Of a stretch of 64,000 nt of DNA, positions 24,372 through 64,000 are shown piece by piece. The first letter of the stretch is position 1, and the number at the start of each line of letters is the position of its first letter. The DNA is taken from contig CALUTD010000002.1 of the NCBI GenBank assembly GCA_944323625.1, positions 102,168-166,167 of the forward strand, written 5' to 3'. The DNA comes from Candidatus Gastranaerophilales bacterium. Its GTDB lineage: Bacteria > Cyanobacteriota > Vampirovibrionia > Gastranaerophilales > Gastranaerophilaceae. The notes under the pieces are model-generated. The model did no database searches. It was not told the origin of the DNA and was given only the letters and a program-made list of their open reading frames with translations. A program made the translations under genes and the position numbers.

Positions 24372-24791
24372 TTATTCAGATTCCGAATCTGATATTTTAT
24401 CCTTTACAAATTCAACTATTTCACCCGTCATAAGAGTTGAGCTAACAACACCTTTTTTAATTCCATCAATTAAGGATTCGCCTAATTCTTCAGTATTTTC
24501 TTTTAATGTTTCAACAAATTCTGCACCGCCGGCTTTTGCTTTGTCAAGAATTGAACCTTCTTCTTCAACTGCTGCTTTGCCGCCTTGAATAAAAGCATTG
24601 CCTTCTGTAGCAATTCCATTAACTAAGAATTCGCCTAATTCTTCAGTATTTTCTTTTAATGTTTCAACAAATTCTGCACCGCCGGCTTTTGCTTTGTCAA
24701 AAATTGAACCATCTTCTTCAATTGCAGCTTTGCCGCCCTGAATAAAAGCACTGTGCTCTGCAGCATTTTCAAAAATTTTTTTAATTTCCAT
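24372..24791 (-). CDS. Small acidic protein made of two tandem 51-aa repeats, function unknown
   Basis: AFIQGGKAA(I/V)EE(D/E)GSI(F/L)DKAKAGGAEFVETLKENTEELGE occurs twice. No signal peptide or transmembrane segment. Confidence 0.6.
   Translation of the reverse strand: MEIKKIFENAAEHSAFIQGGKAAIEEDGSIFDKAKAGGAEFVETLKENTEELGEFLVNGIATEGNAFIQGGKAAVEEEGSILDKAKAGGAEFVETLKENTEELGESLIDGIKKGVVSSTLMTGEIVEFVKDKISDSESE
24476..24751 (-). repeat. Intragenic tandem duplication (period 153 nt, two ~123-nt near-identical copies)
   Basis: 24476-24598 versus 24629-24751. The first 72 nt are identical, followed by about 6 mismatches. Confidence 0.9.
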
Positions 24792-24831
24792 AAATTTATC
24801 CTTTCCTTTTTTCTACAAGTTAAATATCGGT

Positions 24832-24990
24832 CGGGGGGGGGGAACTTTAGGGTTTAATTCGCATAATTTACAAAAATTAACAATAGTAAAATATTTTTTA
24901 ACAAAAAAATATTTACGTGGTTTTAAAATAGCATATTAATAAACAGGAACAAAAAAACATGAAAAAATTATCAAAAAATCCCCCCCCCCG
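24832..24990. promoter_or_regulatory. Segment bounded by a perfect 12-nt inverted repeat, cG10a (24832-24843) and tC10g (24979-24990); candidate phase-variation element
   Basis: Direct count of both tracts. The 135-bp AT-rich interior lies upstream of the gene starting at 24791 and contains TTGTAA-N18-TAAAGT on the minus strand, abutting the tract. Confidence 0.5.
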
Positions 24991-60045: not shown

Positions 60046-60152
60046 GATATATTAAATTATGTTACAAAAATTATATACTCTTGTCATGTTTACAGGTAAA
60101 AAAAACTTTATATAACCATAAGAGAGTTTTAACATGAAAGAGAGAGTATATT

Positions 60153-60653
60153 ATGGGAATTAACAGTGTATTTAATCACTTTGATTACAGTAATTATCAA
60201 AAAAGTTCATCATCAAACGAAAATGCAAAACTAGCAGAATATGCAAAGCAATTTCAAGGATACAATGAATCTGACGGAAGTGCAAATATATTTCTTGGCG
60301 GCGGCAGTTCATCGGCAACACCTTGGTGCGCTGCATTTGTTGAATATTGTGTTGAAAACTGCGGTGATTCTGACATAGCAGATTGGTATGAAGATGTCGG
60401 CAATAAATGGTATTGCCCTGATATTTATGCCGCAGCTGAAGAAGCAGGTGCAATAGTAGACTCCAAAGAAGCTCAAATAGGTGATTTAGTTTTATTTGAC
60501 TGGGAAGGCGACGGAGTTCAAGATCATATCGGAATTTTCTTAGGATATGATGATGATGGAAATATGCTGACAATGGAAGGTAATACAAACGGCGGAGAAG
60601 CAAAAATCCAAAAAAGAAGTTTAGATAACGCAACATTCTGCTCTATGGCATAA
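60153..60653 (+). CDS. CHAP-domain (Cys/His amidohydrolase/peptidase) protein, leaderless
   Basis: ATPWCAAFVEYC (catalytic Cys), QDHIGIFLGY (His) and TMEGNTNG. No signal peptide. Confidence 0.75.
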   Translation: MGINSVFNHFDYSNYQKSSSSNENAKLAEYAKQFQGYNESDGSANIFLGGGSSSATPWCAAFVEYCVENCGDSDIADWYEDVGNKWYCPDIYAAAEEAGAIVDSKEAQIGDLVLFDWEGDGVQDHIGIFLGYDDDGNMLTMEGNTNGGEAKIQKRSLDNATFCSMA

Positions 60654-60667
60654 AAGATAAATGTAAT

Positions 60668-60702
60668 AAAAGGACTTTTATATAAAAGTCCTTTTATTTT
60701 TT
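60668..60702 (+). terminator. Rho-independent terminator
   Basis: Stem aaaaggactttt/aaaagtcctttt followed by a T-run. Confidence 0.8.
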
Positions 60703-60770
60703 ATAAAAAGTCAATTTTTATAAACAAAATTTTTTTATATATATATAAATTAAAAAGAGAGAGTCAATAT

Positions 60771-62684
60771 ATGAATATTAATTCATTAAAATCAGGATTT
60801 AAAGAATATCTGCAAGAATTAAATCAAATATCAAACAAAAACTATAAAACAGATTCGGATTATAGTATTTTTGAGTATTCAAATGAATTCTTAAAATATT
60901 TATCTGATGAAGTTCAAACAGATGCTTCTGTTTTTTCAATGAATATTAATGATATTTCAAATAATGATATTACAAACGGAGAAATAGATTTTGACAATCA
61001 AACAGGAGATTCGTATGAATCATCATCAACAGAAGAAGATTTAGCCAAGTTATTAAATACAATGTTTGAATTAGAAAATGTAAAATCGATAATTGATGCT
61101 GATTCCAACGGAGAACTTGATGATGATGAAATAATGAATTTTCTAAATTCAATTATCGGGTATGATAATAACGAAAAAACGCTTTCATTGGAAGATATAA
61201 TCAGCGCAATGAAAGATATAAATGATAATAATTTTAAGCTAAAAGAAGAAAGTCAAACAGAAACACAACCTCAATCAACAAATAATGCTACTTCTGGCAC
61301 AGCAGGTTCTTCAGGGGCAGCAGGTACTTCAGGAGGTGCTTCAGGTGTTTCAGGCTCGAGTTCTGCCGGCAGTGCGGGAAGTGCAGGTTCTTCATCAGGA
61401 ACCGGTTCATCAAGTAGTACATCAAGTGTTGATGACGGTGAAACATTAGAAGAATTAGAATCTTTAAGAACGGAAAAACAAGGCGAATTACAAGAAGCGC
61501 AAGATGCGGTAAGTGACGTTTATTCGGGTGAAAACGAAGCTGTAAAGCAGGCACAAGAAGATAGTGATAAAGCACAAGAAGAATATGATAAAGCTGTTGA
61601 AGAAGATGAAAATATATCAGAAGAATTAAAACAACAAAAAGAAGAAAACGATAAACAAATAGCAGAAAAAGAAAATACAATAAATCAAAAAAAGGCAGAC
61701 ATAAATACTAAAGAAAATGAAATTTCCGCAAAAGAATCGGAATTATCATCAGAACAATCTAATCTTGCTGCACTTCAATCGGCCCTTGCCACTTATGAAA
61801 CAACAAGCGAAGACTCTGAAAATCAGCAAGAAATGGCAGAAAAAAAAGCTGCCGTTAAACAAAAAATAGCTGATTCCGAAAAGAAAATTCAAGATATTAA
61901 AGATGCTATTCAAAAACTGAATGATGACAAAAAAACTCTTGAAGATGACAAAAAAATTGCAGAAGATGACCTCAACGGATTAAAACAGGATCAAACAACT
62001 ATACAAGGAGAAATAGCAAAAGTATGTAAACCTGAAACAAAAGAAGCAATGCAGGCTTGTAATGATGCAAAAAATAACTTAGAACAAGTAAAAACAACAG
62101 AAGAAACTAAAGCAAAAGAAGTTGTTGAAACCAAACAATCAGAATTAGATGAAATTAATAAAAAAATTGATGATAAAAAAGCACAAGAAACAATAAAAGA
62201 AAATTCTGCACAAGATAAATCAGTACAAGCTCTTCTTGATTTTGCATTATCAAAAGATGGTTTATCTGCAGAACAAATGAAAAAATTAATGCAAGAAGCC
62301 GGCTGTCAGTTTGATGATGGACAATGGTGTGCCGATTTTGTAACATATTGTTTAAAGCAGGTATATGGTGATGACATCCCGGGTGATTTTGCAAATACCT
62401 GCTCAAATACGGCATATTGCCCAACTATAGAAGAATGGGCAAAAAGTAACGGCTCTTATACAACAGATTCAAGCCAAGTTGAACCCGGTGATTTAATTAT
62501 TTATACAAGAAAAGGACAAGCCGGTCACATTGGTATTGTAACTTCCGTAAATGCAGACGGAACTGTAAATACAATTGAAGGCAACACTTCAAATGACAGC
62601 GGTGGTTACGGAAGCGGCTGGGTAAATGAGCATCATAATGTTAGCGACGCGAGAAGTTTTGTCAGACTAAGTGCGTTAAAATAA
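60771..62684 (+). CDS. Modular protein: conserved N-module, EF-hand-like loop, Ser/Gly linker, long coiled coil, C-terminal CHAP domain
   Basis: DADSNGELDDDE (nt 61095-61130), S/G tract (about 61289-61428), E/K/Q coiled coil, then QWCADFVTYC...GHIGIVTSV...IEGNTSN. Confidence 0.75.
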   Translation: MNINSLKSGFKEYLQELNQISNKNYKTDSDYSIFEYSNEFLKYLSDEVQTDASVFSMNINDISNNDITNGEIDFDNQTGDSYESSSTEEDLAKLLNTMFELENVKSIIDADSNGELDDDEIMNFLNSIIGYDNNEKTLSLEDIISAMKDINDNNFKLKEESQTETQPQSTNNATSGTAGSSGAAGTSGGASGVSGSSSAGSAGSAGSSSGTGSSSSTSSVDDGETLEELESLRTEKQGELQEAQDAVSDVYSGENEAVKQAQEDSDKAQEEYDKAVEEDENISEELKQQKEENDKQIAEKENTINQKKADINTKENEISAKESELSSEQSNLAALQSALATYETTSEDSENQQEMAEKKAAVKQKIADSEKKIQDIKDAIQKLNDDKKTLEDDKKIAEDDLNGLKQDQTTIQGEIAKVCKPETKEAMQACNDAKNNLEQVKTTEETKAKEVVETKQSELDEINKKIDDKKAQETIKENSAQDKSVQALLDFALSKDGLSAEQMKKLMQEAGCQFDDGQWCADFVTYCLKQVYGDDIPGDFANTCSNTAYCPTIEEWAKSNGSYTTDSSQVEPGDLIIYTRKGQAGHIGIVTSVNADGTVNTIEGNTSNDSGGYGSGWVNEHHNVSDARSFVRLSALK

Positions 62685-62715
62685 ATTTCATTTATGAAGT
62701 TTTGTAAAAATATGA

Positions 62716-62753
62716 ACAATTTAGATAATTTTTAATTATCTAAATTGTTTTTA
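62716..62753 (+). terminator. Rho-independent terminator
   Basis: Stem acaatttagataatt/aattatctaaattgt followed by tttt. Confidence 0.75.
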
Positions 62754-62783
62754 TAAATATAGGTATTAATTAAGAGAGAAACT

Positions 62784-64000
62784 ATGGACATCAATACATT
62801 AAAATTAGGATTTAATGCATATCTTCAAGAATTAAATGAAATGTCTAATAAGAACTATCAAGAAATAGATTCTGATTATAGCATTTTCAAATATTCCGAT
62901 GAATTTAAAACGTATGTATCTGATGAAGTACAGACAGATGCTTCCATTTTTTCTATGAGTGTAAATGACATATTAGATATGGAAATTGTAAACGGCAAAT
63001 TAGTCGACCCCGAGAAAGAAGCAGAAAAGACACAAGTTGGGGATTCATTTGAAACAACTTCCGAATCGGAAGAAACAAATGATCAAACAGATAACACACA
63101 ACTGCAACAAGGGCAGGAAACAAATCTAACAGATAGTAGCGAAGCAAATAATGAAGAAATTATGCCTGCATTATTAAATGAAATGTTTGAATTGGATTAT
63201 GTGCAAAATGCAATGGATTCAGATTCAAACGGAGAAATAAACGAAGATGAAATGCAGTCATTCTTAACATCAATTAGCGGATTTGATAATAATGAAAATG
63301 ATATCTCGTTAGAAGATATTATGACAGCTTTAGATGAAATAAAAAATGGTACATTTAATCAGGAAGAAGAAATAGAAGAAGCAGAAAATGAAGTTGAAGA
63401 ACTTGCTGCAACTACACCAAGTACCTCTAATTCAACAGGAACTTCAGGTTCTTCAGGTGGTTCAGGTGTTTCAGGAACGTCCGGCGCATCAGGGGTTTCA
63501 GGCTCAGGTTCTGCCGGAGGCAGCGGTTCAAGCGGAACAACAGGAACTCAGGAAAAAACTCTTCAAACAATGAGCAAAGAAGAATTAAATTCAGAATTAA
63601 CAAAAGCAAATTCAGATTTGTCAGATAAACAAGCGGTTCTTGATGGTGTTTTAGACGGCAGTGATCCTGAAATAAAAGCTGCTCAAGAAAATGTTGATAA
63701 AAATTACGAAGAATATCAGGAACAACTTAAAGCAGTTGATGAAGAAATGGCAAAACAAGTTGATGATATAAAAACAAGACAAGATGCTAAACAAGCAGAA
63801 ATCGATGCAAAAGAAGGCGAAATTTCAGATCAGGAATGTGCTGTTTCAGAAGCTGAAACTACATACAATAATGCAGTTACAACAAGAGAAACATTAGAAA
63901 CTACTCTTCAAGGACTTGAAAGCGCTGATCAAAGTGACATGGATGCAACAAAAAAAGGTGAATTAAATTCACAAATATCCGAGTTAAAAGGTAAAATTTC
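62784..64000 (+). CDS. Paralog of 60771..62684 (N-module, EF-hand loop, S/G linker, coiled coil); the 3' end lies beyond the window
   Basis: My translation from ATG 62784 is open to the window edge: MDINTLKLGFNAYLQELNEMSNKNYQEIDSDYSIFKYSDEF...DSDSNGEINEDE (63216-63251)...TSGSSGGSGVSG... It is absent from the track because it has no stop in the window. Confidence 0.75.
   Translation, partial: MDINTLKLGFNAYLQELNEMSNKNYQEIDSDYSIFKYSDEFKTYVSDEVQTDASIFSMSVNDILDMEIVNGKLVDPEKEAEKTQVGDSFETTSESEETNDQTDNTQLQQGQETNLTDSSEANNEEIMPALLNEMFELDYVQNAMDSDSNGEINEDEMQSFLTSISGFDNNENDISLEDIMTALDEIKNGTFNQEEEIEEAENEVEELAATTPSTSNSTGTSGSSGGSGVSGTSGASGVSGSGSAGGSGSSGTTGTQEKTLQTMSKEELNSELTKANSDLSDKQAVLDGVLDGSDPEIKAAQENVDKNYEEYQEQLKAVDEEMAKQVDDIKTRQDAKQAEIDAKEGEISDQECAVSEAETTYNNAVTTRETLETTLQGLESADQSDMDATKKGELNSQISELKGKI

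Follow-up and report, generated by a model that had tools for sequence, protein, structure and literature searches.

A leaderless family of modular, putatively murein-acting enzymes encoded at a four-gene array of a gut Gastranaerophilales bacterium

How would enzymes directed at the cell wall leave the cell when they carry no signal peptide, and whose wall would they act on? This question is raised by the end of a 64,000-nucleotide stretch of DNA (the window) from Candidatus Gastranaerophilales bacterium, an uncultured chicken-gut relative of cyanobacteria that was also detected in chicken-gut metagenomes. The window corresponds to positions 102168-166167 of contig C2 in a metagenome-assembled genome (MAG; GCA_944323625.1) of 1.99 Mb, 31% G+C and 96% completeness; positions given below without a contig prefix are those of the window. 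An earlier note, made from the sequence of the window alone, had described three tandem CHAP-related genes at this site and had read them as diversifying effectors for competition or predation, or as clients of a dedicated secretion route. The identity of the enzymes, and their membership of a modular, leaderless and lineage-specific family, are well supported by the sequence comparisons presented here; their activity, their export route, the role of the stalk and the target are what we infer from them. Taken as a whole, we picture the proteins as non-Sec-exported modular murein hydrolases, autolysin-like and exported by a flagellar-type apparatus, a reading to which we give slightly less than an even chance.

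The array and the modules of its proteins

The three plus-strand genes of the earlier note are real, and the array has four members. Following the contig beyond the window, as that note had advised, revealed the end of gene 3, which includes its CHAP domain, and an additional gene 4, so that the encoded proteins comprise 166, 637, 664 and 528 amino acids:

60153-60653, plus strand: gene 1, head-only CHAP protein of 166 amino acids (Pfam CHAP)
60771-62684, plus strand: gene 2, predicted leaderless modular hydrolase of 637 amino acids, net charge -68 (open reading frame, Pfam and family homology)
62784-64000, plus strand: gene 3, first 405 of 664 amino acids, the CHAP head lying past the window edge
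C2:167086-168672, plus strand: gene 4, 528 amino acids, leaderless, coiled coil and CHAP with a different N-terminus (full contig)

Three other public assemblies contain the array without a single base difference, so it is not an assembly artefact. All four proteins exceed the Pfam cut-off for CHAP (PF05257, 26 bits), with 42.2 bits for gene 1 (E=1.2e-10), 53.8 bits for residues 516-605 of gene 2 (E=2.9e-14), 36.4 bits for gene 3 (E=7.6e-9) and 40.5 bits for gene 4. The (P/Q)WC, xH(I/T)G and EGN motifs align across the four heads and give the Cys/His/Glu positions C59/H125/E142 in gene 1, C520/H586/E603 in gene 2, C557/H622/E638 in gene 3 and C389/H451/E467 in gene 4, with the Glu-x-Asn position retained in each of them (Glu142-Gly-Asn in gene 1). 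A Cys-His-Glu-Asn set is characteristic of phage CHAP endolysins such as LysK, which the array heads resemble both in the arrangement of catalytic residues and in sequence, matching PHROG phage endolysin families at E about 1e-13 to 1e-23 (5e-19 for gene 1, 2e-13 for the gene 2 head, and down to 7e-23), one of the matches being a tail lysozyme family. Unlike those of phage endolysins, the array genes are chromosomal and have housekeeping neighbours, and the heads are joined to a cellular chassis. The gene 1 protein shares 51% identity with the CHAP head of gene 3 and, judged by this alignment, is a head-only copy of the gene-3-type CHAP. It is thus well supported by sequence that the array encodes cell-wall-targeting enzymes with endolysin-like CHAP cysteine-peptidase heads. 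Such a Cys-His-Glu(-Asn) head would cut amide or peptide bonds in murein, and murein amidase or endopeptidase activity is predicted accordingly for the array heads.

The gene 2 protein was divided into five consecutive parts:

60771-60995, plus strand: N-terminal family module, residues 1-75 (MNxxxLKxGF...SIFxYSxEFxxYL), defined by family conservation, no Pfam match
61029-61223, plus strand: EF-hand region with the calcium loop D109-E120 at 61095-61130 (profile match; predicted local distance difference test score, pLDDT, ~90-95)
61248-61436, plus strand: Gly/Ser/Thr-rich disordered linker of low complexity (pLDDT <50)
61446-62204, plus strand: coiled-coil stalk, residues 226-478, with helices 284-344, 352-418 and 421-478 (pLDDT >90)
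62223-62681, plus strand: CHAP head, with Cys520 at 62328, His586 at 62526 and Glu603-Gly-Asn at 62577

In an AlphaFold2 model of gene 2 built from 150 sequences (mean pLDDT 83.6), the N module is folded and is followed by an EF-hand domain, a disordered tether, three long helices and a CHAP fold; an earlier run with 21 sequences had been poor outside the stalk, and Foldseek then returned generic coiled coils only. Residues 1-50 of the N module reach pLDDT 84-94. Across the family this module follows the pattern MNxxxLKxGFxxYL ... SIFxYSxEFKxYL, in which S32 and F34 are nearly invariant, and S[IVL]F occurs within the first 120 amino acids in 138 of 170 representatives. D109 and E120 of the EF hand are invariant, and the family profile matches solved EF-hand proteins (E=6e-10). 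Pfam and NCBIfam scans over the N-terminal 480 amino acids yielded EF-hand and generic coiled-coil matches only. The architecture suggests an interchangeable murein-acting head mounted on a constant chassis of N module, EF-hand pair, tether and three-helix stalk. The EF hands would tie folding or activity to the high calcium outside the cytoplasm, and the stalk would probably position or restrain the head, as in PcsB, RipC and CwlO.

A lineage-restricted family with exchangeable heads

A word-index search with gene 2 returned 27 homologs sharing the first ~500 residues and ending in unrelated C-termini, and an exhaustive profile search recovered at least 513 clusters at 50% identity (E<=1e-30). 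The shared chassis consists of an N module of ~75 amino acids, one to three EF-hand loops, a Gly/Ser linker and a helical stalk of ~250 amino acids. Among 170 representatives (an earlier census had taken in 72 members) the heads were CHAP in 57, lysozyme/lytic transglycosylase-like (LT-like) in 46, esterase in 24, glucosaminidase in 12, SLT in 12 and YkuD in five, with NlpC/P60 and VanY/M15 heads among the others; the LT-like head shows a weak match to a solved lytic transglycosidase. Gene 4 differs in its N-terminal part, and its orthologs, all CHAP-headed, form a group of their own of ~500 amino acids; on these sequences it is a second leaderless coiled-coil/CHAP subfamily.

Signal peptides, hydrophobic N-termini and membrane segments are lacking in all 170 representatives, the one apparent exception being an upstream mis-start. 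The earlier note's remark that signal peptides are lacking thus extends to all four array genes, none of which has an in-frame extension upstream of its start, and to the family at large. Members are currently annotated as hypothetical or 'CHAP domain-containing', and no description of the family was found in the literature.

The 35 family loci collected with one genome per species all derive from gut MAGs. Twenty-seven are labelled Gastranaerophilales, Gastranaerophilaceae or Avigastranaerophilus and two 'uncultured Vampirovibrio'; the other six belong to three co-assembly bins that bear the names Muribaculaceae or Gammaproteobacteria, which we take to be wrong. That the family of genes 2 and 3 is specific to Candidatus Gastranaerophilales is well supported. 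Within the class, chassis-bearing members are confined to the bacterial family of the window, in genera g1, g8, g22 and g23 with a weak match in g17, and apart from g8 no such member was found in genera g2-g11, even with a broader profile. The present genome holds six copies, the four array genes and two paralogs elsewhere:

C1:135709-138054: paralog with an LT-like head
C4:50615-52654: paralog with a glucosaminidase head

Comparison module by module indicates that the chassis itself has been reassembled. The N module of gene 2 is 65% identical to that of gene 3 and 33-40% identical to those of the C1 and C4 paralogs, and its EF hand follows suit (52% versus 24-32%); the stalk reverses the relationship, with 29% identity to gene 3 versus 55-56% to the LT-like and glucosaminidase paralogs. 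Gene 2 is therefore, by sequence, a chimera. In a maximum-likelihood tree of 153 stalks, gene 2 is sister to the glucosaminidase paralog (99% support), and gene 3, which joins an N module and EF hand of the gene 2 type to a stalk from another clade, falls into a separate, mostly CHAP-headed group. Gene 3 had been called a paralog of gene 2; this holds for the N module, but the stalks preclude a simple tandem pair. Across the tree at least 41 changes of head type are required. The array paralogs share 23-51% amino acid identity and their synonymous sites are saturated. In one divergent strain, gene 3 carries 12 synonymous and 5 non-synonymous changes, a ratio of non-synonymous to synonymous polymorphism (pN/pS) of 0.10. 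The proposed diversification is thus borne out at the level of whole modules, but the strain comparison, the single informative one, indicates the purifying selection that the earlier note had named as speaking against its effector idea.

The family occupies recurrent chromosomal positions. Upstream of the array lie homocitrate-synthase-like, aconitase and isocitrate-dehydrogenase genes, and gene 4 is followed by pckA on the opposite strand, with oad and birA also among the neighbours; a family member of another locus (L065) adjoins pckA as well, and a single YkuD-headed member (L037) adjoins the same oad (oxaloacetate decarboxylase) and birA genes. At least six genomes show the LT-like paralog in synteny with fur and a flavoprotein gene, the glucosaminidase paralog adjoins secA in two, and overall the paralogs stand at syntenic housekeeping loci across genera. 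Shuffling of modules, together with local expansion at a conserved site of the chromosome beside pckA and the oxaloacetate decarboxylase genes, probably gave rise to the array.

Export route and function

Of the two proposals in the earlier note, that of a dedicated secretion route fares better, as a non-Sec route is reasonable to infer for proteins of this kind. Export would bypass Sec and Tat, and its likeliest route would be a flagellar-type type III apparatus retained without flagellin or hook, since such an apparatus is kept in this genome, the lytic transglycosylase of its rod operon is leaderless, and sigma-28 appears to drive a third of the family. The relevant features are:

C1:29323-39619: flagellar-type basal-body and export cluster with two FlgF/G, FlgB, FlgC, FliE, FliF, FliH, FlhA and FliI
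C1:31560-32282: SLT protein of 240 amino acids between flgC and fliE, without signal peptide (SLT E=1e-33)

FlhA was present in 33 of 33 related genomes tested, and flagellin in three of 19, exactly those with a second FlhA and a hook protein of 460 amino acids; the hook protein was absent from the genomes without flagellin. Judged by gene content, neither filament nor hook accompanies the flagellar-type export apparatus of this genome. As the FlhA type occurs in all 33 and only three have the second FlhA together with flagellin and hook, the system lacking flagellin persists in its own right and not as a flagellum in decay; a few genera combine it with a second, complete flagellar gene set. 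All 33 genomes also encode a protein of ~490 amino acids whose match to FlhA is limited to the C-terminal cytoplasmic half (profile ~310-655; e.g. C1:2551-3567).

The rod operon has the order flgF/G-flgB-flgC-SLT-fliE-fliF-..-fliH-flhA-fliI, and its SLT protein looks like a functional analogue of FlgJ, which would presumably be exported through the flagellar-type apparatus as FlgJ is. The family resembles FlgJ and other rod-associated hydrolases in being leaderless in a diderm with a flagellar-type export gate, with glucosaminidase and SLT heads occurring in both. Unlike FlgJ, family genes lie outside flagellar operons, number six per genome instead of one, and encode far larger proteins with a stalk; the FlgJ N-terminal Rod-binding domain (PF10135) gave no match in Pfam scans of the family proteins. 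A two-part export signal has been described for early flagellar subunits (PMC8983047), and the family N-terminus, with small hydrophobic residues at positions 3-6 and a conserved hydrophobic motif at ~32-44, bears a resemblance to it, though a resemblance only. As a candidate export tag, [DNE][IVL][SN][IV]F was discarded as unconvincing, its 16 N-terminal matches in the genome forming a mixed bag.

A FliA-type sigma factor was detected above the curated cut-off. A sigma-28 promoter of the form TAAAGTTT-N11-12-GCCGATA precedes 17 of 52 family genes, including the C1 paralog of this genome, at a distance of 25-40 nucleotides, compared with seven of 531 neighbouring genes (p=2e-14), and three fully flagellated relatives have this promoter type ahead of their flagellin genes. 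In Bacillus subtilis, the sigma-D-dependent autolysins LytC, LytD and LytF are an amidase, a glucosaminidase and an endopeptidase; like them, a third of the hydrolase family stands behind promoters of the flagellar sigma type. The Bacillus enzymes differ from the family in being Sec-exported, carrying LysM or CWB repeats and lacking a coiled-coil stalk. By analogy with these autolysins, the enzymes would more likely remodel the wall of their own producer than attack neighbouring cells, and we lean towards such an autolysin-type action because of the syntenic loci, the purifying selection, the complementary bond specificities predicted for the paralogs and the Bacillus precedent. Export through the flagellar-type apparatus is, on the sequence evidence, an attractive hypothesis.

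Genome-wide, 16 genes lie behind a TAAAG-N13-17-CCGATA motif (e.g. C1:235711, C4:78568, C9:9365-13300, C14:35093, C18:8158-14412, C18:43222), and most encode large, acidic, leaderless proteins without assigned function; one, of 122 amino acids, starts like the hydrolase family (MDINSFISKYL...ASIFSSEN). This gene set may be the sigma-28 regulon of the flagellin-less system. A broader proposal, that the family and the other large acidic leaderless proteins with sigma-28 promoters are all cargo of this flagellum-derived apparatus without flagellin or hook, is offered tentatively, and we would sooner expect it to fail than to hold. Within the window itself, a sigma-28-type promoter, CTAAAGTT-C10-GACCGATAT, was observed at 24825-24850 on the minus strand, upstream of a gene for 139 amino acids (24372-24791). 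Its spacer is a poly-C slippage tract (poly-G on the plus strand), a change in whose length would shift the -35/-10 spacing, which suggests a phase-variable promoter. Separately, three paralogs (C3:14407-15279, C5:53862-54602, C6:97583-98536) have conserved termini, MGLxxSQGRxLxLTAR...NIExxFKxFA, around a variable middle, a flagellin-like arrangement without a Pfam match, and a gene of this type directly adjoins a member of the hydrolase family in a related genome (L027:7131-8519).

Several observations weigh against autolysin-like enzymes exported by the flagellar-type route. Genes 1-4 themselves have no sigma-28 promoter and, unlike the sigma-D autolysin genes, carry a different shared motif, CTTTATATA. 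No family gene lies within a flagellar operon; one is located ~3.5 kb from flgBC (L061). Most genera with the same apparatus lack the family, so the apparatus does not need it; with FlhA in 33 of 33 genomes and the family in a subset, their co-occurrence is uninformative and was dropped as evidence. The pN/pS value comes from 17 substitutions in one gene, and the fold matches described below are non-significant. Contigs of one chicken-gut metatranscriptome match gene 1 (60191-60506), gene 2 (62220-62393) and gene 3 (62784-63014 and 63915-64000), and none matches the upstream isocitrate dehydrogenase gene, but DNA can be present among such contigs. Finally, head swapping on a constant N-terminal part, patchiness and a head-only orphan are also typical of polymorphic effector families.

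This last point leads to the effector reading, in which a dedicated secretion system uses the constant part as its trafficking module and the exchangeable heads break down the walls of competitors or prey. We regard it as unlikely, but as deserving real weight. As in polymorphic toxins (the Tae/Tge effectors of type VI secretion systems, T6SS; LXG proteins of type VII systems, T7SS; Rhs; contact-dependent inhibition), a constant N-terminal part is joined to a polymorphic C-terminal enzyme, the distribution is patchy among genera, and the tandem array includes an orphan head. The proteins are leaderless, very acidic and, with their EF hands, calcium-binding; this genome has further leaderless proteins, with glycine-zipper C-termini, that share the CTTTATATA motif; the predator Vampirovibrio belongs to the sister order; and a flagellin-less type III system could itself serve as the delivery device. 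Unlike polymorphic toxins, the family has neither a known trafficking domain (PAAR, VgrG, Rhs, LXG, MIX and TPS-type domains were absent in Pfam and NCBIfam scans) nor an immunity-like gene beside any of the ~50 loci examined. The intergenic gaps of the array (100-140 bp) hold a promoter and terminator only, and neighbours vary between loci. T6SS or contractile-injection cargo was ruled out, as the 96% complete genome has no TssC and no contractile sheath gene; type IV systems and T7SS were not searched for. Syntenic housekeeping positions, the low pN/pS and an array identical across samples likewise disfavour the competition and predation suggested by the earlier note, and esterase, YkuD and VanY heads fit wall maturation better than killing.

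The layout also recalls the hydrolases activated by FtsEX: in PcsB of Streptococcus pneumoniae, CwlO of Bacillus subtilis and RipC/Cg1735 of Mycobacterium and Corynebacterium, as here, a long antiparallel coiled coil precedes CHAP or NlpC/P60. The FtsX extracellular domain would then be the docking site of the stalk, and the heads would be activated at the septum as FtsE hydrolyses ATP. Both genes are present in this genome:

C5:1938-3510: ftsE and ftsX, on a separate contig from the array

That the stalk is strongly conserved among paralogs whose heads are unrelated suggests a single docking partner common to them, and the best Foldseek hits of the 150-sequence model in the PDB were PcsB (4CGK) and Cg1735 (8AUD), with EnvC-FtsX (6TPI) at rank 10. 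These matches are non-significant (E=0.02 and template modelling scores of 0.14-0.23 for the top two; rank 10 likewise), and a PDB sequence search gave no match to FtsEX-type hydrolases. To our knowledge, all FtsEX-activated coiled-coil hydrolases have Sec signal peptides. The family is leaderless, adds an N module, EF hands and a Gly/Ser tether, bears many unrelated heads, is multi-copy, and has no member near ftsEX at any locus examined; the ftsEX gene context that the earlier note had thought might overturn its reading was looked for and not found. Furthermore, a canonical EnvC-type protein with signal peptide, coiled coil and M23 is already encoded in this genome, as are two Sec-exported Amidase_3 proteins; such proteins are equally present in relatives without the family, and the idea that the family substitutes for missing housekeeping autolysins was set aside on the same ground. 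Its absence from most genera of its own bacterial family indicates that it is not an essential division hydrolase. Despite a PcsB/RipC-like layout, as the earlier note had already discerned, the family falls outside the FtsEX clients on signal peptide and ftsEX coupling, and this explanation is improbable.

Somewhat similar in standing, and quite improbable, is the view that the proteins are never exported and act on murein precursors or recycled muropeptides, or are freed at lysis. They carry no export signal of known type, and some CHAP and YkuD/LdcA-like enzymes do act in the cytoplasm, but the canonical calcium-loop EF hands, Gly/Ser tethers and long stalk are extracytoplasmic features, the lytic transglycosylase and glucosaminidase heads require polymeric glycan, the heads are endolysin-like, and control by sigma-28, which applies to a third of the family, is in keeping with autolysins or late exported substrates. 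A remnant prophage cassette for lysis or virion-associated lysins, a further refuting case foreseen in the earlier note, is very improbable: virion-associated lysins are leaderless and frequently have coiled coils, the CHAP heads match the endolysin and tail lysozyme PHROGs cited above and one family member matches Phage_lysozyme2, but housekeeping genes flank the array and ~50 related loci on both sides, none of these loci has a holin, terminase, capsid, tail or integrase gene, the genome lacks a sheath gene, the G+C content of the array equals that of the genome, and positions are syntenic across genera, which together led us to reject it.

Signals flanking the array genes and wider significance

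Sequences around genes 1-3 contain further elements, all on the plus strand:

60106-60114, plus strand: CTTTATATA promoter-region motif upstream of gene 1, common to other family genes
60136-60146, plus strand: purine-rich GAAAGAGAGAG tract, weakly Shine-Dalgarno-like, 6 nucleotides before the gene 1 ATG (read from the sequence)
60665-60698, plus strand: intrinsic terminator after gene 1, 15-bp stem, 4-nucleotide loop and T run (terminator scan)
60752-60763, plus strand: AAAAAGAGAGAG tract, 7 nucleotides before the gene 2 ATG (sequence and word enrichment)
62715-62749, plus strand: AT-rich 15-bp hairpin with a TTT/T run after gene 2, probable terminator (read from the sequence)
62772-62781, plus strand: AAGAGAGAAA tract before the gene 3 ATG (sequence and word enrichment)

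Strong terminators had been reported after genes 1 and 2. The first is confirmed, but the hairpin after gene 2 has only two G:C pairs and was not called by the scan, which needs at least three. The tracts upstream of genes 1-3 are all of the AAGAGAGAG type, and the word AGAGAGA or GAGAGAG occurs within 20 nucleotides of the start in five of the six family genes of this genome but in only 11 of 1569 other open reading frames (Fisher p=3e-10), so the element is not a product of chance. Its predicted pairing is weak, at -4.0 versus -10.1 kcal/mol for AAGGAGG (calculated with the canonical anti-Shine-Dalgarno sequence, as the 16S 3' end of the MAG itself was not found). Orthologs in other genera carry the ordinary purine-rich sites AAGAGG, AAGGGGA or AGGAGAG instead, on which account a special regulatory element was ruled out and we read the tract as a lineage-specific weak ribosome-binding site. 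The unusual element of the earlier note is thus real and enriched, but not of a new kind.

The motif CTTTATATA(TA), often inside TATATACTTTATATATA, recurs 20-50 nucleotides ahead of gene 4 and the C4 paralog, and likewise ahead of family genes in other genera, and TTATATATA lies upstream of eight of 52 family genes versus four of 531 background genes (p=9e-7). In one genome the CTTTATATA motif forms a perfect 26-nucleotide palindrome that includes the ribosome-binding site. The motif may be a promoter, an operator or an RNA hairpin; when the 5' regions of genes 1-4 were folded, no stable hairpin common to all was found. The four array genes would be transcribed separately, each from its own promoter.

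Other leaderless proteins were noticed in passing. Several have Gly/Ala-rich, glycine-zipper-like hydrophobic C-termini (C29:9025-10026, C21:24449-25633, C4:49768-50502, C4:11461-11814), and some of their genes stand behind the CTTTATATA motif, as the array genes do; the gene at C4:49768 is conserved beside the glucosaminidase-headed paralog in two genomes. Pfam gave no useful match for the leaderless proteins that neighbour the family or share its motif. Many proteins of these genomes, leaderless and otherwise unrelated, start with M-[KR]-[IL]-[SN]-x-[IV]-x, for example at C5:502-1935 (beside ftsX), L025:12487, L029:9584, L032:11100, L060:15175 and L067:18956.

The known stalked murein hydrolases are Sec-exported FtsEX clients; here one chassis carries at least eight kinds of wall enzyme and no known export signal, and the family thereby poses, in concrete and testable form, the question of how a diderm might export proteins without Sec. 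It also offers a link to the 'incomplete' flagellar gene sets of gut Melainabacteria, noted since 2013-2014, and to sigma-28 targets in genomes without flagellin. The endolysin-like heads are naturally modular, and the chassis may interest engineers of lytic enzymes. If the broader cargo proposal is true, the flagellin-less apparatus would be a protein-secretion machine and not a motility organelle, and the chassis would be a delivery-and-tether module by which murein enzymes of any kind cross the inner membrane independently of Sec, for the purpose of wall remodelling or of attack on neighbouring bacteria.

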